From Nitrosomonas europaea (GTDB lineage Bacteria > Pseudomonadota > Gammaproteobacteria > Burkholderiales > Nitrosomonadaceae), in contig NZ_FUWK01000028.1 in NCBI RefSeq assembly GCF_900167395.1, forward strand, positions 1 through 32,000: a DNA stretch of 32,000 bases, given 5' to 3'. Positions 4,214-14,000 of this stretch are shown here, piece by piece. A program made the position numbers and the translations under genes. The notes beneath the pieces are model-generated. The model saw only the letters and a list, made by a program, of their open reading frames with translations, had not been told where the DNA came from and ran no database searches. Every line of letters begins with the position of its first letter. The stretch's first letter is position 1.

Positions 4214-4771
4214 TCAGCGGTCCGTCAACAAACACCATTTCTGCAAACGTCTATTGTAGAGGATAAGCGATACGATCGTTCTGATGAGTAAATTATGCCA
4301 CTGTGCAACAGGATAATCCGGTTGCACCATGGGATCCCTGAAATCAGCCATCCACGGAATACCCGTCAAACGCTGCAAGGTCAGCCCGATCAAATGTGCC
4401 GTTGCAATAGGATAAGTCGACCAGATTACATCCGGCTTATACTTTTTGATCAGATACCATCCTGCGGGCACTGCGCCCAGCCACCAGCTCACCCAGCGAT
4501 CCGGTAAGGCCAGCACTCGCGGATATCGCCCCATCACCTTCAGATGCCTCGCTGTATCCAGCGCAAACGCCCGATGAATACGCACTTGTTGCGGAATATC
4601 CGCCAGCTGGCCAGAATCGATCTGCTGGTAGGCGCGCGGTGAAGGCGCCAGAATAATCGGCTCCCAGCCATGATCAGGCAAATATCGGGCAAAACGCAAT
4701 GTCCGCTGCATTCCGCTGCTACCGTGCAAAGGCGGGAAATGGTAAGCGATCATCAATACACGTTTTACCAT
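4214..4771 (-). CDS. Glycosyltransferase (GT-B/GT4-like), N-terminal domain only; probably a truncated remnant
   Basis: 'KRVLMIAYHFPPLHGSSGMQRTLRFARYLPDHGWEPIIL' is a typical GT4 N-terminus, and the ORF stops after 185 aa. Only about 100 nt lie before the next gene, so there is no room for the donor-binding C-terminal domain. Its start overlaps the upstream hydrolase stop by 7 nt. Confidence 0.6.
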   Translation of the reverse strand: MVKRVLMIAYHFPPLHGSSGMQRTLRFARYLPDHGWEPIILAPSPRAYQQIDSGQLADIPQQVRIHRAFALDTARHLKVMGRYPRVLALPDRWVSWWLGAVPAGWYLIKKYKPDVIWSTYPIATAHLIGLTLQRLTGIPWMADFRDPMVQPDYPVAQWHNLLIRTIVSLILYNRRLQKWCLLTDR

Positions 4772-5637
4772 GACAACACTCGATTTGCGGTCAGTTCTGT
4801 CACCTGATCACGCCATTCACGCGTGGAAAATGTATGGTTGGCGCTTTCCATGTGGCAAAGTTCTGTCTGCTTTGTTCTCAGAGTAGCTTGCCAATCTGCC
4901 GATGAATCGACCAGATCCAGAAATTCACGCGCCGTCAGATCATTTCCACTGGTAATGATCAGTATTTTTCCCTGGAAACGCTTCAGGCCATCCAGCATAC
5001 GCTCCGGCAAAGGAACAGTCAGGTCGCATGCTGAACCAGCACTTTTTTCTGAGACAGCCGGACTTTTCCCGCCCCGCAAGCTGTTCCTGCCAAATTCATA
5101 TAAAGACCGGATAGAAGCCAGTGGATTGAATTTTCCACCCAGCAGTTTTTTCCAGAATTCCGGATCGAACAGACGTTCCAGGTAATAGTGTTTCAGGTAC
5201 GCTTTGGCAATCCCTTGTTCTGTTCGCACCCAGGGATTCAGCAACACCAGCCCGCTCACTCGCGAATCCTGGTGGGCATGGAATAACGCTGCCGATGCTG
5301 CGTCACATAATCCCCAGATCACGATATCTTCCAGAAAAGGACATTCACTGAAAAAAAAGTCGGCAGCACTGCGCAAATCCTCCCCGACATGTTCAAATGT
5401 TCGTATCTCACCGTCACTGTCCCCCATTCCCCGGAAATCGAACCGCATGACAGCAATACCGCGCTCCGCCAGATAGCGCGCCAGCAAAACAAACTGTCGG
5501 TGACTGCCAACGCGATACTGCGGCCCGCCAACGACAATCAGCACACCTCGTGTAACCGGTTGCTGCGGTAGATGTAAAACCCCGTAAAGCCAGTCGTGAT
5601 GGCAACAAAAACGTACCGCTTGTTCCTGAACATTCAT
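4765..5637 (-). CDS. Alpha/beta-fold protein, exosortase-A-system-associated hydrolase family (likely the 'hydrolase 1' type)
   Basis: 'VVGGPQYRVGSHRQFVLLARYLAERGIAVMRFDFRGMGDSDG', nucleophile elbow 'IWGLCDAAS' (Cys in the Ser position), C-terminal 'ESANHTF'. ATGA overlap with the upstream gene. Confidence 0.75.
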   Translation of the reverse strand: MNVQEQAVRFCCHHDWLYGVLHLPQQPVTRGVLIVVGGPQYRVGSHRQFVLLARYLAERGIAVMRFDFRGMGDSDGEIRTFEHVGEDLRSAADFFFSECPFLEDIVIWGLCDAASAALFHAHQDSRVSGLVLLNPWVRTEQGIAKAYLKHYYLERLFDPEFWKKLLGGKFNPLASIRSLYEFGRNSLRGGKSPAVSEKSAGSACDLTVPLPERMLDGLKRFQGKILIITSGNDLTAREFLDLVDSSADWQATLRTKQTELCHMESANHTFSTREWRDQVTELTANRVLSW

Positions 5638-6470
5638 GGCTGGATTCCGGCAAATAGCTTAGCAGTGGCTGCCAGCAGTGCCGGGCATTCGCTGATTTCC
5701 TGAGTAGCCCAGAACGGCAACCCGGGTATGAGTGTTACTTCCGGATAAACACCAGACTGGTTCCATGCCTCCACGACCGCAGCACCAGCAGGAGGAAGCC
5801 CGCGACCCGCTTCGGGCGTGATCTCAAACCAGTATATTTCACTGTTCCCGACGACCAGCTGACCCAGTTTCAACTCATCGATCGCAGCCGCCATTGCGGG
5901 AGAAAGCGTATACCCTGCTATTTCAAGCGATTTACCTGCTCTGAGTTCTTCACGAAGATGAACATTCTGAGCTTTATCCGAATCATCCGACAGGAGCTTA
6001 TTCACCAGCCGCAAACGTAAAAATTGAGTTAAAAATGATTTACCGTTGATGACAGGTTGCCAGAGTATAAACTTTGCCGAACCTGTTTCTGCCTTCCCGG
6101 CATAATCCAGTGCCAGCAGGGCTCCCAGCCGTAATCCCCAAAAATGAACCGATGTAAATCCCTGCTGTATCAACCACTGGTAAGCAAATTCAACATCGTT
6201 TTTCCAGATCTCCCAGGTAGCCTCCCCGAAATCTCCTGCGCTGTCCCCGCAACCATACAAGTCTATCTGCAGTACACCAAACCCCATCGCTGCGAACGCT
6301 TTGGCCTGCAGAGCAGCCATACGTCGGGACTTATTCATTTCTTCCGCAAACGGATGAAGATAGATAAATACCTGGTTTAATGGCGTATCCCCGGCGGGGG
6401 AGTGGTAGAGGCAGAAACGTTTTCCCGGCGAAGCATCCAGAAAGAAAGGTTCAGCCGGTGGATTTTCCAT
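5634..6470 (-). CDS. Alpha/beta-fold protein, exosortase-A-system-associated hydrolase family (likely the 'hydrolase 2' type)
   Basis: 'IYLHPFAEEMNKSRRMAALQAKAFAAMGFGVLQIDLYGCGDSAGDF', elbow 'HFWGLRLGALLAL' (Arg in the Ser position). Starts 6 nt after the ACP stop. Confidence 0.75.
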   Translation of the reverse strand: MENPPAEPFFLDASPGKRFCLYHSPAGDTPLNQVFIYLHPFAEEMNKSRRMAALQAKAFAAMGFGVLQIDLYGCGDSAGDFGEATWEIWKNDVEFAYQWLIQQGFTSVHFWGLRLGALLALDYAGKAETGSAKFILWQPVINGKSFLTQFLRLRLVNKLLSDDSDKAQNVHLREELRAGKSLEIAGYTLSPAMAAAIDELKLGQLVVGNSEIYWFEITPEAGRGLPPAGAAVVEAWNQSGVYPEVTLIPGLPFWATQEISECPALLAATAKLFAGIQP

Positions 6471-6476
6471 GCAGTC

Positions 6477-6728
6477 TCAGTGCGACAGTTTATGTTCGAC
6501 AAAAAGCGCCAGGCTTCCGAGTGTTTCAAAAGTCTGTGCACTGATTTCATCGTCATCCACCGAGAAATCGAAGTATTCCTCGAGCGCGGTAATCACATTG
6601 ACCACCGCCATCGAATCCAGCTCCGGAATATTTCCGAGTAAAACGGAACTGGCTGTCAGCGTGTGTTTTCTCTCTCCGAGATTCAACACATCACCCAAAA
6701 TGTTTCTGACTGCTTCAAGATGCTGCAT
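6477..6728 (-). CDS. Acyl carrier protein (stand-alone, exosortase-A-locus type)
   Basis: 83 aa from ATG 6726-6728, preceded by GGAG. 'LDSMAVVNVITALEEYF' fits the DSL-type phosphopantetheine attachment motif. The track ORF extends to a GTG at 6749. Confidence 0.75.
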   Translation of the reverse strand: MQHLEAVRNILGDVLNLGERKHTLTASSVLLGNIPELDSMAVVNVITALEEYFDFSVDDDEISAQTFETLGSLALFVEHKLSH

Positions 6729-6937
6729 AATCACTCCACAAAAGATCACTGCTTGATGTTGACGGCATTTTAAGACAGTTTTTTAAAACGTGCCGCATTG
6801 ATCACTCCCGCAAACAGGTTGAGGAAACACCCGTATATCATGCACAAACTGCTTATTTCCGATATTAAGCCATTGGTTCTGCTGATGTTGCATCTGCCGA
6901 TATACCTACTTCACGGGTTGACTGCCCCGGCAGCCTC

Positions 6938-8128
6938 ATGAACTGGTATGAACTGTACTGGCAACGCATCACCCCGCTGCATCTTTTTTTGTGGCCGGTC
7001 AGCCAATTGCTCATCCTGTTTCAGTCTGTCCGGCGTTTTCTTTACCGGCGCGCGATACTGACTTCGATTCACCTGCCCGTACCGATCATTATCATCGACA
7101 GTATAACCACTGACAGTCCGGTCAAAACATCACTCATCATTCAGATTGCCAATATCCTGAAAGCAGCAGGGCTGCGGCCCGGGATCATCAGCCGCGGCTA
7201 TCCCGACAACCATCGTCCGCCGACAAGGGTGACGATCAGTAGTCATCCCCATCTCACTGGTGAGAAATCACTGTTGCTCACCTACCATTTACGTGAAACC
7301 TGCCCGGTATGGATCGGTTATGACCGGATAGAAACAGCAAAGGCTTTACTAAATGCTCACAAGGAATGCAATGTGCTGATCTGTGATGATGGCTTGCAGG
7401 ATCTTCGTCTGCAGCGTGATTTCGAAGCTGTCATCGTCGATACCAGTGTCATCAATTCAGGAAATGGCCTGATCATGCCTGCCGGGCCGCTACGAGACAG
7501 TTTTGCACGTTTGAAACACACTGACGCCGTCATACTGGCCGGCCATCAAAGGCGGATACCGGATATCACGGATGAAATCAGAACGATTCACACCCGTCCA
7601 CAGAAAGAACATTTTTTCAATCTGTCATGGCCCGAGCTGACAGCCGATGCAGCGGGACTGGCAGGCAAACGCATTCATGCCATTGTCTGCGATCCGGATA
7701 CACAAAACTTTCTGGACAACCTCGAATTCCTGAAACTGACCGTCACTCCTCGTGTATTTCCGGAAAATCACCATTTTATTGCAACGGACTTCCAGTCTGA
7801 TGAAGCCGAAATCATCCTGATACCGGAAGAAGATGCAGTAAAATGTCTGAGTCTGCACGATGATCGCATCTGGGTTTTACAACAGGAATATCGTGTCGAT
7901 CCCGGGTTACGCGAAATCATACTTAAGAAGTTGAGAGAAAAATTCATGGATCCAAAACTCCTGGACATTCTGGTCTGCCCATTATGCAAAGGCTCACTTA
8001 TTTACAAAAAAGACCGGCTGGAACTGATCTGCAAGGCGGATCGGCTGGCATATCCCATTCGGGATGGCATCCCCGTCATGCTGGAGGATGAAGCCAGAAA
8101 ACTGCCTGACGAAGAAGAAATCAAATAG
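6938..8128 (+). CDS. lpxK: Tetraacyldisaccharide 4'-kinase (LpxK) homologue with divergent catalytic motifs, fused in frame to a Trm112/YcaR-like domain
   Basis: LpxK-like throughout ('[10 protein letters not shown]', '[20 protein letters not shown]', '[14 protein letters not shown]', 'EEDAVK'). The Walker A position reads '[13 protein letters not shown]'. There is no stop codon before the YcaR-like segment. Confidence 0.8.
7946..8128 (+). other. Trm112/YcaR (UPF0434) zinc-ribbon-like domain; could also be translated separately from the internal ATG
   Basis: '[53 protein letters not shown]' is the canonical 60-aa YcaR sequence. The internal ATG at 7946 has GAGAG about 8 nt upstream. Confidence 0.8.
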
Positions 8129-8168
8129 CGCCACGCTCTTTCATACCCTTTTCCATTCAGAATCATTC

Positions 8169-8190
8169 ACACGGCGGGTATCCGCCGTGT
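8169..8190. terminator. Hairpin between convergent genes (possible bidirectional terminator)
   Basis: ACACGGCGG-GTAT-CCGCCGTGT: perfect 9-bp GC-rich stem with a 4-nt loop. Only a weak T-rich tail follows (CTGTCTCTC). Confidence 0.35.
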
Positions 8191-8253
8191 CTGTCTCTCA
8201 ACCTGAATTTCCATCAGCCCGCAAGGTAAGGCCGGTTTCTGTTACCTGCAATC

Positions 8254-10758
8254 TCAATATTCGAGGCGCAAGGAACCCAGAATGGTCAGCGGAGCACCAG
8301 GATAAATACCAGCACGTGGTGGCGCATTCACGAAAGGGTCGGTAGATTCGTAATAACGTTTGTCAAGAAGATTACGGATATTGACCTGCGCGATCAGACG
8401 GGTTGGGCCGAGCTTCATCCGGTAGGCGACAAACGCATCCAGACGAACGTACCCCGGCAACGCAAAGGTATTTTCATTATCACCCTGCCGCAGTCCGGCA
8501 GCGAATATGCCCATGCCGAACTGCCATCCGTTAAGCGGCTGGTAATGACGAATGTCATACTTGAGCCACAAACTGCCGGAATGCTCAGGCACGTTACTCA
8601 GGCGATTGCCTTGCAGGCCGGAATAATCTCTGGTAATGCGGGCATCAGTAAAAGCATAATTACCAATGACGCTGAGTTCATCGGTAATCTGGCCGCTCAA
8701 ATCAAATTCGATACCCTGACTGCGTGCTTTCCCGATTGCAGCAACCGCAAAAGGATCCGGACTGTTGAAATCGCGGGTCAGAATATTTTCCTTGGTCAGA
8801 TGGTAATAAGCGAATGTCATTGTCAGCCGCTGATCGAACCATTCGGCTTTCAATCCGGCTTCGAATTGCTCGCCTCTTTCCGGATCGATCGTCGCACCAG
8901 TATTGGTAACACCATTGTTGGCTCCGAACGAAGTTGTCCAGTTACCGTAAATACTGGCCCAGGACCACGGCTGATAAAGAATGCCCACACGCGGACTGAA
9001 GCCGTTATCCTTGCGTGTCGGTAAGTTGGCTTCGGCCGCTCTGAAGGAATCACCCCGTCCGCGCCCCGTAGTCGCCCACTCATAACGGCCACCTCCCAGA
9101 ATATGGAGCTTATCCCAAAGCGTGATGTGATCCTGAAAATACACGCCATACCACTCATCCTTAGAAAAACTGTGATTTTCCCCGGCAGGGAAAGGGGTTG
9201 CCAGCGCCTGAGCGTAAAATGAAGGATCAATGCCATATACCGGGTTATAAATATCGATTTCCAGACCCGACACCGGTGACAGATAATTACCCCGCGTCAG
9301 ATAAGTGCCGGTCGAGCGCAAGTAATCGAAGCCCACCAACGTTTGATGCCGAGTGCCCAAAAACTCCAAGTTACCTGTTAAATCGAAATTCGTCGTATAG
9401 GTTTGGGATGAGGAAATTTGTGAAAAGATATTGCGCAAATAGGTGCGGTTGCCCTTGCTTGGATCCAAAAACTGCGCGACCGTGAACGCATTCGCGGGTT
9501 TAACTGAAGTGTTATCATCATCGACAAAGGACGCCAGGAACCGGTTGCGCAAAGTCCAATCGGTATTGAAGGCATGGGTCAGATTGAAACCAAGATTGAC
9601 CCGGGAATGGGTATCGACAGGATCATCGGGATCGATGAAGGAACGGGTAACTGGAATCGGCGCGGGGCGGTCCCCGATTGCGAACAGACCTCTGTCGACC
9701 TGATAGTCCTCATGCAACGCTTCCACTTCCAGGGAAAGTTCGGTGGCATCATCAGGCCGCCACGTCAAGGCAGGGTTCACCAGCACCCGGTCATTAAAAT
9801 TGAAATCCCGGAACGACCGGTTGTTCTGATAAGAACCGGAAAAGCGATAGTTGAGCGATTTGTCCTTGGTAACAGGACCCATGCCGTCCCACTCGGTCCG
9901 GTAAGAATTGTAAGAACCGAAACGTTGTTCGATGGAATAATAGGATTCGCCACGCGGTTTTTTGGTGGTCAGATTGATCAGCCCGCCGGGCTCGATCCGC
10001 CCATACAGAATTGACGCAGGCCCTTTGAGCACTTCGATGGATTCCAGATTGGCGGAATCGAACATTGATTCCTCCCCAATAGACAAGCCCAGAGCGACCA
10101 GACCGTTACGATAGACCCGGCCGTTTCTGAAACCCCGGATAATGAAAGCGTTGCTTCGGCCCAAAGACGATTGCGGCCGCACGCTGCTGACGTTTTCGAG
10201 CGCGTCCTTGATCGTCGTCGTTTTCTGGTCATTCATCACTACCCGCGGAATCACCTGTATCGACATGGGCGTTTCCATGATCGGCGTATCGGTTTTGGTT
10301 GCCGAGAACGCACTGGAGCGACGATAACTTCTGTTATCCGGCGCATCAGGATCGATCACGCTGGTTATTTTCATTTCCGGCAAAGTCACTGCCTCTGTAT
10401 TACTGTTCGTGTGCCCTGCGGGGGCAGCTTCCAGTGTGTAGCGTCCCGGCGCATTCTCGATCACGATGAGTCCGCTGCCTTTGAGCAGTTGCCCGATCGC
10501 CTGCAGGGGAGTAAAGCGTCCATTCAGTGCGGGTGCCTGTTTGCCTGCAACCAGACTGGCATCAACACCGATGAGCAAACCTGCCTGAGTGGCAAGCTGC
10601 GTGATCGCCTGTTCGAGGGGCTGTGCGGCAAGATCGATTGCAATCGTCTGCTGAGTGACGGCAGACTGCGCAACGGCACTGGCCGATACGAACAGACCCG
10701 TGGCCAGCACCGATCCCAACAAAAAACCGTGACGTAACGAAACCGTTTTTATAATCAT
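8254..10758 (-). CDS. TonB-dependent siderophore receptor/transducer with N-terminal STN signalling domain (FecA/FpvA class)
   Basis: Start ATG 10756-10758 is preceded by GGGAG. Signal peptide MIIKTVSLRHGFLLGSVLATGLFVSASAVAQ. STN domain 'LEQAITQLATQAGLLIGVDASLVAGKQAPALNGRFTPLQAIGQLLKGSGL'. Plug 'IEVLKGPASILYGRIEPGGLINLTTK'. Barrel ends 'SLRLEY'. The track ORF extends to 10806. Confidence 0.9.
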   Translation of the reverse strand: MIIKTVSLRHGFLLGSVLATGLFVSASAVAQSAVTQQTIAIDLAAQPLEQAITQLATQAGLLIGVDASLVAGKQAPALNGRFTPLQAIGQLLKGSGLIVIENAPGRYTLEAAPAGHTNSNTEAVTLPEMKITSVIDPDAPDNRSYRRSSAFSATKTDTPIMETPMSIQVIPRVVMNDQKTTTIKDALENVSSVRPQSSLGRSNAFIIRGFRNGRVYRNGLVALGLSIGEESMFDSANLESIEVLKGPASILYGRIEPGGLINLTTKKPRGESYYSIEQRFGSYNSYRTEWDGMGPVTKDKSLNYRFSGSYQNNRSFRDFNFNDRVLVNPALTWRPDDATELSLEVEALHEDYQVDRGLFAIGDRPAPIPVTRSFIDPDDPVDTHSRVNLGFNLTHAFNTDWTLRNRFLASFVDDDNTSVKPANAFTVAQFLDPSKGNRTYLRNIFSQISSSQTYTTNFDLTGNLEFLGTRHQTLVGFDYLRSTGTYLTRGNYLSPVSGLEIDIYNPVYGIDPSFYAQALATPFPAGENHSFSKDEWYGVYFQDHITLWDKLHILGGGRYEWATTGRGRGDSFRAAEANLPTRKDNGFSPRVGILYQPWSWASIYGNWTTSFGANNGVTNTGATIDPERGEQFEAGLKAEWFDQRLTMTFAYYHLTKENILTRDFNSPDPFAVAAIGKARSQGIEFDLSGQITDELSVIGNYAFTDARITRDYSGLQGNRLSNVPEHSGSLWLKYDIRHYQPLNGWQFGMGIFAAGLRQGDNENTFALPGYVRLDAFVAYRMKLGPTRLIAQVNIRNLLDKRYYESTDPFVNAPPRAGIYPGAPLTILGSLRLEY

Positions 10759-11032
10759 GAAAACTCCCTGTGTCCTGTCGATAAAAAATGTGCTTCTGTT
10801 ATCCATGACACACGAGTCGGAAAATCGGGTAGTTTTGACTGCAGAATTGTCAATGCGCTGCTCCGGTCACAGATTGCACATTGATGAAAACAGGGTGATG
10901 ATGAGGTTTAAAGTTGCATGATTCGCAAAAATGCTGCATTTGCGAACCTGAAAAGGCGAAATGATCCAGCAAGCTTTGAAAGATTGTTTTTGCTGCCGTC
11001 AGAATCTGACGAGAAATTTAAAAAATCTCTGA

Positions 11033-14000
11033 TTAAGCAGATTCCCGGGACGGAATCCACTTCCTCCATTTTCCCAGTAACGGAAAATAAAGCGCCAGGT
11101 GCATAGGGCGATCTTCCATACGCTGCAGTACTTGTGCATAGCGATCCAGTTGCGGACGGTAACGCAGCTGTTCCCGATCGAGGAATTCCTCAAGGCTGCC
11201 ACCGGTATGAGACCCCGTCTTGTAGTCGATGATCCAGCGCACACCTGCTGCATCCACGAAGGTTCGATCGATGATGCTGACAGAAATCGAGTGGCCCGCT
11301 GCAATTGCCGTTGGAACAGACAGCGCCCATTCACAACGCGCTTCCTGATGCCGATTGCTCAGAATCCAGCGGCCCGTTTCATCTTCCACACACATGGTCC
11401 TGAGGGCTCGTGCAACCTGCTGCACCGCTTTTTCCAAATGCCGGGGGGTGATACCAGATTGTATGAGTAACGACCGCCCCGCCAGTTTGAGAGCTTCCAG
11501 ATCCTGATGATCCACATTCTCGACCCCGATCAGCCCGATACGATGCAACAGGCAGTGCACGACCACCCCCACCAGTCGAGCGGGCTCACCCGCCCAATCG
11601 AAATCAACCGGCTCTTCTGTCGTGCCGGCCTCATTCGCATGCATGGCAACTGCAACGGCTTTGGGCAACGGCGGGGGTTGCCAGCCAGACACCAGGCGCA
11701 CCATGCCAACAAGCTGCAAACCTGTATGTACATTCGATGCAGGCAAATCTCCGATAGCAGCTTCGCGCGATCGTGCCAGAAAATCTGCTGCCACGGCAGG
11801 CCATAACCTGGCCAGCAGGGTATCCTCCGGTGGTTTCAACGCATCATTCTCCTGCATATCCGGATCGATCCTGAGATGCCCCAGTAAATGCAGATTGTGT
11901 TTCGCCCGGGTAACTGCCACATACAGCAATCGCGCCTCTTCCAGCGCAGTCCGTTTCTTTTCTTCAGACAGGATGTAGGCGGAAATCGGATTTTTATCGC
12001 TCCCCGCTGCACTGATCGGCGCGCACAATAAACCCGGATGCTGTGACTGATCGTGAAACTCCAGCCAGTTGAGCAGCTTCTCCTGATCCCGTCTGGGAGA
12101 TTTACCCAGCCCCGGCAGAATTACTGTATCGAACTCCAACCCTTTGGCCTTGTGCAAAGTCATGAGCTGCAATGAATCGTCTGCCGCCACATCCGGCAGA
12201 GCAAACAACCGTACCAGCCGTTCATCCAGCTCCTGGATATCGGGTCGATAGCCGGTCACATCGAAATTTTCCAGCAACTGAAAATAGACTTCGGCGTCTG
12301 CCAGATCTGTTTCATTCTGTACACTGGCGGGCCCTCCCAGACTGACCCATATGCCCTCCACGCATCTTCTCAACGACATCCTGTCGTAGAGCATCAACGC
12401 ACGCTCCAGAATCGGCAATACCCTGTTCACCCGCTGACCGCCTTCTTCACTCAAAACACCTGAACCGGCACAGGCACGCAATGAATCGATCAGCACATGC
12501 TGTGGCAGCGTATTGGCAACGGTATGTAAATCCTGCAGGGAAAGTCCGCAAAACGGGGCGCGCAATAATGCCAGCCAGGCGATACGATCAGCCGGATGCA
12601 CCAGGGCCCGGGTCAATGCCATCAAATCCCGGATCACCACCCGTTGCGCCAGCTGTTCGATTTCCACTGCCTGGAAACGCAAGCCTTTTCGCCTCAAATG
12701 CACAACGATACTCGCCAGATGGCTGCGATTACGCACGAGTACGGCAATTCTGCCATCCGGTTGTGCAGCTCTCGCCTGCGCTACGATCGCCCCCACCTGC
12801 TCCGCCTCGGCCCGATCATCTTTTTGCAGATAAGGATAAATCCTGACCGCCTCCCCGCTGGAAGCCGCATGAAACGCTACGGAACTCGCATACGACACGG
12901 CACCGGTGCTTACGCTATCCGTATCCGGCAATATCCGTGGAAAATAGCGGTTGACCCACTCGACGATCCCGCTCTGCGAACGGAAATTGACTGAAAGACG
13001 CAGAAACCTCATCTGGATCTGGCCAAAATAGCCACTATCGCGAATATCCAGAAACAACCCCACTTCAGCCTGCCGGAAGCGGTAAATCGACTGCATCGGA
13101 TCTCCTACCAGAAACAGCGTGCGGCCGTCTCCGGTCTGCCAGCCGGCAGTCAGCCGCTGCAGCAATTCGGCCTGGCTGGAAGACGTATCCTGAAATTCAT
13201 CCACCAGCAGATGGTGAATACGATAATCGAGTGCCAGTGCCAGATCGGTCGGCATTTCCGGTTCACCCAGCGCACGGACAGCCGCCATAGCAATCTCGGT
13301 AAAATCCACCTGGCCGTGCTGCCGGAAAACCAGCAGCAAATATCCGGCAGCCACCTTGAGCAGGCTGAACAGGGCCTGCAGCGTTTCCCACTCTTCATCG
13401 GTATATCGTTCCGGAGGTAACTGCCTGAGTAACTGCAACTGCTGACGAAATGTCTCCTCGCTCTGCAAAGCCACCAGCAACTCACTCATCCGCTGCTTCA
13501 TTCCGTTCAGGTATTCTTTTACGTCAGCATCACGCACTGACGATGGTGCCGGGAACCCGTTTGCCTTCGTTACCTGTTTACGCCAGTCTCCCGTTTGGGT
13601 GAGCAGGAAATCCGCCATACTCTCCCAGACAAGACGATCTTCAAGTGCGTTACCAGGCCAACGGACTGTATTGCTATCGGCTGATCCTGCTTCTGACAGA
13701 TTGACCGCGGCAAACTGCATCAACTCGATAATTTCCGACTGGCAGCCGGCAGGAACAGCATCAGCCAATCGCTCTATTGCTTCCGCAATCCGGCCTGACA
13801 GCACGGATTCCAGACGATCACGCATATCATCCGAATTAGCGGCATCAACCACACCTCGCAACCATAAATCGCGCCGCGCCAGCATATCGGCAATCAACTG
13901 CTGCAATCTATCGAGACGATTATCCAGATGACCGATCAGATGTTCGATTGCCGCAGTCCACTCACCCTCTTCCTCCAGCGCCTCGACTGTCAAACGGGCT

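Follow-up and report, generated by a model that had tools for sequence, protein, structure and literature searches.

LpxK is regarded as an essential and invariant enzyme and as a Gram-negative drug target. An open reading frame of Nitrosomonas europaea is homologous to LpxK over its full length, but its catalytic motifs are eroded and it continues in frame into a YcaR/Trm112-like domain. What such a protein can still do is the question that this locus raises. An earlier note on the same DNA offered three answers: a pseudo-kinase paralogue, a lineage-specific LpxK with an unusual ATP site, or a regulatory fusion. The evidence set out below comes from the window (the whole stretch of 32,000 nucleotides that was analysed), from the genome to which it belongs and from related genomes. 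It favours, at a probability of roughly 0.6, an LpxK-derived, non-catalytic pseudoenzyme that has been kept by selection, a reading drawn from sequence comparison.

An LpxK-like domain in frame with YcaR

The open reading frame and its two domains are as follows:

6938..8128, + strand: whole open reading frame, 396 amino acids plus stop, an LpxK-like domain in frame with a YcaR/Trm112 domain
6938..7945, + strand: LpxK-like domain, amino acids 1-336, with the two-domain LpxK fold (PF02606, TIGR00682, AF2 model, Foldseek)
7946..8128, + strand: YcaR/Trm112-like zinc-ribbon domain, amino acids 337-396 plus stop (PF03966, 2hf1, fold match)

The LpxK domain of Pfam (PF02606) is found at residues 15-332 with 277 bits against a cut-off of 27, covering profile positions 2-327 of 328, and the NCBIfam model TIGR00682 scores 129.3 bits against a cut-off of 91.95. 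The N-terminal part of the protein also matches Aquifex LpxK (4ehw/4ehx). A Trm112p domain (PF03966, 58.7 bits) follows at residues 338-377 in the same frame with no stop between, which bears out the fusion described in the earlier note. The last 60 residues resemble YcaR-type proteins of known structure (2hf1, E 2e-21; 2js4, E 2e-18) and contain the YcaR zinc-knuckle signature CPxC...CxxD as CPLCKG...ICKAD; the YcaR model NF008806 gives 79.8 bits, short of the 126 that its E. coli-specific cut-off requires. The junction is not an artefact of sequencing or assembly. Contigs from RNA libraries of four independent studies (Logan) span 6400-8296 with zero differences, which confirms the sequence only, and the in-frame junction is found again in about 25 other species genomes.

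In E. coli the gene order is lpxK-ycaR-kdsB. The domain order of the window protein is alike, whereas kdsB has moved: as had been observed earlier, it is not at this locus, where a convergent STN/Plug/TonB-dependent receptor gene lies downstream instead, and a KdsB homologue is encoded elsewhere in the same genome. Near the 3' end of the receptor gene, at 8253-8298, contigs from the RNA libraries of three or four studies stop and a 44-base stretch runs on into other contigs (loose ends at 8253), suggesting a short repeat that overlaps this end of the gene.

Upstream of the open reading frame, an ACP gene and two alpha/beta-hydrolase genes are oriented divergently (4765-6749, - strand). In another sublineage, 18 loci likewise have a divergent alpha/beta-hydrolase gene ahead of the LpxK-like gene. 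Across the genus no conserved operon partner was found. The flanking genes vary by sublineage and include alpha/beta hydrolase, DUF4126, aspartokinase-like, ZipA, AddA-like and LeuRS genes. A scan for promoters and terminators returned none above shuffle expectation. The missing conserved neighbour gives no hint of a partner, and this counts against a pseudoenzyme.

Catalytic motifs of the window protein

[quoted passage not shown] H261 is the catalytic base, supported by D99; K280 reaches the phosphates through a water molecule; and R72, R119 and H143 bind the 1-phosphate of the lipid. Mutating K51, T52, H261, D138 or D139 lowers the kcat of Aquifex LpxK 850- to 8100-fold (PMC6286764). The Aquifex numbering was transferred to the window protein through an alignment to Aquifex LpxK 4ehw together with an alignment with canonical relatives. 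The altered motifs are:

7097..7129, + strand: eroded Walker A/P-loop, amino acids 54-64 (alignments with canonical relatives and Aquifex)
7259..7270, + strand: GEKS in place of GDEP, amino acids 108-111 (D99E and E100K, at E109 and K110)
7382..7402, + strand: Walker B region CDDGLQD, amino acids 149-155 (DD pair kept here, H143 replaced by D)
7688..7711, + strand: CDPDTQNF in place of GIGHPERF, amino acids 251-258 (C-domain glycine motif gone)
7760..7774, + strand: PENHH in place of PDHH, amino acids 275-279 (catalytic-base position H261 is N277)
7823..7843, + strand: PEEDAVK in place of TEKDAVK, amino acids 296-302 (K280E charge reversal, at E298)

The canonical P-loop GNISVGGTGKTP is replaced by a differing 12-residue stretch at residues 54-65. 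Its substitutions are G42D, N43S, G47D, G48S, S49P and G50V, while K51 and T52 are kept; every glycine of the Walker A pattern GNxxxGGxGK(T/S) has thus been replaced. S49P in addition removes one backbone NH that faces the beta-phosphate. The P-loop erosion with its retained K-T, as first read from the letters of the sequence, is upheld by alignment both to canonical relatives and to Aquifex 4ehw, and the other five motif readings hold in the same alignments.

In the Walker B region, DDGLQH has become DDGLQD (residues 150-155) with both aspartates present as D150 and D151 (D138 and D139); across the genus D138 is D in 55/135 sequences and N in 52/135. The glycines of the C-domain GIG motif are replaced by C251 and P253 (G234C, G236P). 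The change from PDHH to PENH followed by H is a substitution without an insertion when aligned to close relatives with MAFFT, whereas a gapped phmmer alignment to Aquifex pairs H279 with H261 instead. R72, Y74, R119, D138, D139 and R171 are kept. The segment RPGIISRGY and a second, 13-residue scaffold segment are intact, as had also been claimed.

The window protein therefore differs from LpxK in its P-loop glycines, D99, E100, H143, H261, K280 and the C-domain GxG. Judged from these residues, productive binding of Mg-ATP or phosphorylation of a lipid is most likely absent. The E100K and K280E swaps together with the acidic residues of the P-loop may fill the former ATP site. T52, D138 and D139 are still present and D99E is conservative, which counts against a pseudoenzyme.

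Erosion across Nitrosomonas

Homologues of the window protein are those of Nitrosomonas, for example at 80% identity in N. eutropha, 67% in N. halophila, 56% in N. communis and 40% in N. aestuarii. Two sets were compared. One comprises 49 genus sequences, namely the window and 48 genes extracted from Nitrosomonas species genomes. The other comprises 135 sequences selected by D at the G42 position, so that D54 is circular in this set while the other positions are not. Whether relatives share the substitutions had been raised as a point to check, and they do: all 49 species sequences are eroded, and D replaces G42 (D54) in 49/49.

In the 34 nearest canonical relatives the functional residues listed in PMC6286764 are invariant (34/34). 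Among the 135 Nitrosomonas-type sequences, lysine replaces E100 in 108 and glutamate replaces K280 in 123; D99 varies among G, N, S, D and E; H261 is replaced by N, D or E, with H in only 10; and T52, D138 and H143 are variable. Among representatives of the nearest 50%-identity clusters, 144/149 have the canonical G[NDS]xxxGGxGK[ST]. The clear Walker A exceptions are Nitrosomonas-type sequences, one of them without even the lysine. Taken together, the invariance in the 34 relatives and the 144/149 canonical motifs place the erosion far beyond chance. The most eroded member seen is a cluster representative of 341 amino acids (P0128), whose P-loop reads IDRITVDDSALLP, with the lysine gone.

The Nitrosomonas clade is monophyletic (SH-aLRT 99) and goes back by vertical descent to the LpxK of Betaproteobacteria. 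Patristic distances average 1.35 within the clade and 0.64 among canonical sequences, which indicates that the Nitrosomonas form evolves faster, by about twofold.

Not all of these data favour the loss of activity. The P-loop lysine is almost universal (131 K and 4 R of 135), 108/135 retain a His beside the lost H261, and proteins named pseudokinases have repeatedly proved active with unusual chemistry. Each of these points counts against a pseudoenzyme. Some sublineages also retain GDEP (L011) or the GGKTP end of the P-loop, so that residual nucleotide binding by LpxK-like proteins may, on sequence grounds, persist.

Such observations could instead point to a protein that is still catalytic, as a phosphotransferase or some other enzyme, with a remodelled site and a different membrane lipid as its substrate, for example a ceramide-phosphoglycerate intermediate. 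The near-invariant K51, the newly fixed D54 and S55, the mostly retained R171 and R119 and the purifying selection described below would all suit such an enzyme, and acidic P-loop residues are tolerated in some active kinases (thymidylate kinase, RecA). The Mg ligand E100 is now K, however, and the base H261 is lost. Moreover, the sublineages differ in which catalytic residues are missing; one keeps GDEP, but EK(L/S/I) ends its P-loop. In the 49 genome sequences the median entropy at 16 catalytic or nucleotide positions is 1.55 bits, as variable as the protein-wide 1.59 bits, and other canonical-invariant sites have 0.80 bits. This variability at former active-site positions is not what an enzyme that had settled on a new active site should show, and a remodelled enzyme is considered unlikely.

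Absence of the lipid A pathway

The 100%-complete genome of the window has a single LpxK homologue and no second, canonical lpxK. LpxC, LpxB and WaaA have no match in this genome, and LpxA and LpxD reach 23-26 bits at best against cut-offs of 231-242, through hexapeptide-repeat matches only. The window protein is thus unlike LpxK in that the pathway enzymes up- and downstream of it are absent. The absence of LpxC extends to all four genera of the Nitrosomonadaceae (0/120 genomes), whereas 57/59 of the order's other genomes have LpxC (a tally that includes the unpublished genome G141; 56/58 without it).

That lpxK is an orphan in this organism has been reported before: of nine Kdo2-lipid A genes it was the sole one found in N. 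europaea by Opiyo et al. 2010 (PMC3087551). The gene and the organism group are the same as here; the accessible part of that paper does not mention the motif erosion, the YcaR fusion, the selection or the confinement to a single genus.

The LpxK-like gene is present in 74/75 Nitrosomonas genomes and in 0/44 of the family's other three genera. The order has two further genomes without LpxC (G139, G161), which were considered as possible sources of more degenerate copies, and neither has any LpxK. Loss together with the pathway thus appears to be the rule, and retention in Nitrosomonas the exception. One of the two, G161 (family f43, one contig of 2.1 Mb), is a free-living-sized genome without LpxC and LpxK, and is possibly a second LPS-less lineage.

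These results bear on two of the original options. A paralogue is refuted by the sole homologue in a complete genome and by vertical descent. A lineage-specific LpxK with an unusual ATP site is unlikely, as the genome has no LpxA, LpxC, LpxD, LpxB or WaaA for its substrate. The corresponding explanation, that the protein is a functional lipid A 4'-kinase whose ATP site is merely unusual, can point to a full-length match above the PF02606 and TIGR00682 cut-offs and to the database name, tetraacyldisaccharide 4'-kinase. It is nevertheless extremely improbable: the pathway is missing, and residues on which Aquifex LpxK depends (its kcat falls 850- to 8100-fold when they are mutated) are replaced or variable in the genus. 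The automatic label 'tetraacyldisaccharide 4'-kinase' can accordingly mislead metabolic reconstructions of ammonia oxidisers.

Selection on the LpxK-like gene

Among the 75 Nitrosomonas genomes the LpxK-like match is full length, spanning the whole profile, in all 74 that have one. The median dN/dS of the LpxK-like domain is 0.149 (Nei-Gojobori, 66 pairs, dS 0.15-1.5), and by the same pairwise method the fused YcaR part has 0.053. In identical genome pairs the values are 0.156 for the LpxK-like domain and 0.064 for KdsB.

The LpxK-like part might be a functionless relic, either a mere N-terminal carrier of a needed YcaR or a gene not yet decayed. The fused YcaR is indeed the sole copy in the genome and strongly constrained, and nonsynonymous sites of the LpxK-like domain change 2.3 times faster than those of KdsB. 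In one species the TGG codon of a conserved Trp that directly follows the P-loop has become the stop codon TAG (L009, G084:C14:9750-13700), and a 99% complete Nitrosomonas genome (G036) lacks the gene, which together suggest that its role is dispensable in some species. Yet a dN/dS near 0.15 lies far below the neutral value, and G084 holds the only internal stop in a gene that has stayed full length despite the mean patristic distance of 1.35. A carrier role fits poorly with the 25/49 species sequences that are unfused, with YcaR encoded elsewhere, and where both YcaR copies occur decay strikes the fused YcaR rather than the LpxK-like part. A relic is judged improbable.

The pseudo-kinase half of the original proposal thus stands, given the genus-wide loss of residues, the missing substrate pathway and purifying selection, even though its paralogue half does not. 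Pseudoenzymes that have a P-loop NTPase or kinase fold minus the catalytic residues are a general class. The Nitrosomonas protein resembles them in its kept fold, lost catalytic residues and continuing purifying selection; it departs from them in that its catalytic residues went together with the entire substrate pathway. That a genus keeps LpxK under selection with neither substrate pathway nor catalytic residues hints at a non-kinase property of the LpxK scaffold.

Retained fold and possible role

The AF2 model of the window protein (pLDDT 85.3, pTM 0.85) shows the two Rossmann-like domains and the N-terminal amphipathic helix of LpxK, and Foldseek aligns it to Aquifex LpxK 4lkv/4ehx/4itn with TMt 0.84-0.86 at an rmsd of about 3 Å. 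Full-length homology (PF02606, TIGR00682), fold (TMt 0.85) and N-terminal helix are therefore all like those of LpxK from Aquifex (4EHX/4ITL/4LKV) and E. coli, as are the GNG...PAGPLR loop and the P-loop lysine. The YcaR part of the model matches the fold of 2hf1/2pk7 (TMt 0.74-0.81). Two retained elements stand out:

6938..7045, + strand: N-terminal amphipathic membrane-interface helix, amino acids 1-36, as conserved as in canonical LpxK
7460..7495, + strand: conserved 12-residue GNG...PAGPLR loop, amino acids 175-186, including the R171 equivalent

The model predicts a helix at residues 13-37. In the N-terminal helix, W8, R10, T12, P13, L14, H15, L18, P20 and S22 are conserved in both the Nitrosomonas and the canonical group, with a mean entropy of 0.94 and 0.91 bits, respectively. 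Conserved in both groups as well are G175, N176, G177 and P181-R186 of the loop, K63, and R160, D161, E163 and D168.

A pseudoenzyme could have arisen as follows. The ancestor of the Nitrosomonadaceae would have lost the Raetz lipid A pathway, after which most lineages would have dropped lpxK too while Nitrosomonas retained it. The two-domain fold, the membrane-interface helix and the lipid-side loop with R171 have been kept; the P-loop glycines and the H261/D99 proton relay have been lost, with E100 now K and K280 now E. The protein probably works without catalysis on the cytoplasmic side of the inner membrane, where it would bind or scaffold either an anionic lipid or another protein as its partner.

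Envelope context

LptD and KdsB are each present in 120/120 Nitrosomonadaceae genomes. KdsB, the CMP-Kdo synthetase, is kept while candidate users of CMP-Kdo were not found, namely WaaA in the window's own genome and the capsule Kdo transferases KpsC/KpsS in 40 genomes (0/40); KpsC/KpsS are thereby ruled out as the reason for its retention.

The genome's only LptF/LptG pair lies within a ceramide/CPG-type cluster (L079, G000:C56:50500-66500, at about 4938-12312). The cluster encodes, in order, a GNAT-like CerS candidate, NTP_transf_3, LptF, LptG, CDP-OH_P_transf, DAGK_cat and a 321-amino-acid protein without a family. The ceramide/CPG phosphosphingolipid cluster of Caulobacter has reported orthologues in N. 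eutropha (PMC11324152). From the position of LptF/LptG in a cluster matching that of Caulobacter, the Lpt system here plausibly exports sphingolipid rather than LPS. Nitrosomonadaceae thus come into view as proteobacteria without the Raetz pathway, with LptF/LptG genes inside a sphingolipid cluster.

The cluster bears on a remodelled enzyme in both directions. It could supply a lipid substrate, all the more so as steps of the pathway are still unassigned (PMC11324152). Against this, the family's other genera lack the LpxK-like gene, and if they carry the sphingolipid cluster the protein is not required there. For the preferred non-catalytic protein, a speculative and rather doubtful extension is that anionic sphingolipids replaced lipid A in the Nitrosomonadaceae, that the Lpt permease genes moved into the ceramide/CPG cluster, and that Nitrosomonas then exapted the inactive LpxK at the membrane interface, where it would be a receptor or chaperone serving the new lipid of the outer membrane or the machinery that exports it. 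If true, a former LPS enzyme would have been reused non-catalytically in sphingolipid envelope biogenesis, possibly with YcaR.

The YcaR fusion

An LpxK-YcaR fusion as such is already in databases. YcaR is joined to three of the 34 canonical relatives (P0060, P0066, P0102; UniRef 'Multifunctional fusion protein'), and the N. halophila protein is labelled 'Multifunctional fusion protein' in one source. The window protein shares domain order and junction sequence with these betaproteobacterial fusions; they differ in keeping VGNI(S/T)xGG(T/S)GKTP, whereas the Nitrosomonas kinase half appears dead. The fused lineages of Nitrosomonas are europaea, eutropha, halophila and communis-type. In 25 of the 49 genus sequences the eroded LpxK is unfused, with 333-344 amino acids and no ycaR nearby. 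A regulatory fusion as the cause of the erosion is not supported, given fusions with intact P-loops, eroded copies without a fusion and a separate ycaR gene in nearly all other members of the family, and the fusion is a matter separate from kinase erosion.

A YcaR-like open reading frame is present in 118/120 Nitrosomonadaceae genomes; the LptD, KdsB and YcaR tallies include the unpublished G063 and G069 and become 118/118, 118/118 and 116/118 without them. A stand-alone YcaR of 60-67 amino acids occurs wherever the LpxK-like gene is absent or unfused. Together with the unfused eroded copies, this indicates that the two halves are separable in fate and that YcaR is independent of lipid A. The function of bacterial Trm112/YcaR is unknown according to a review (PMC5372719), and the retention of YcaR throughout a family without lipid A offers a natural handle on it.

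The window's genome has no YcaR other than the fused one (single genome match C32:7946-8116), whose domain starts with a retained internal ATG at 7946. The YcaR module would be tethered to the membrane through the fusion, or the internal ATG may also yield free YcaR. In genomes with two YcaR copies the fused one is degenerate. A diverged (26-53 bits) or decayed fused YcaR beside a stand-alone ycaR is seen at L013, L026, L029, L031 and L046, and in genomes G003, G073, G081, G083, G115 and G118; L026 has a 373-amino-acid frame with a YcaR remnant, and in G073 a TAA lies inside the fused YcaR module.
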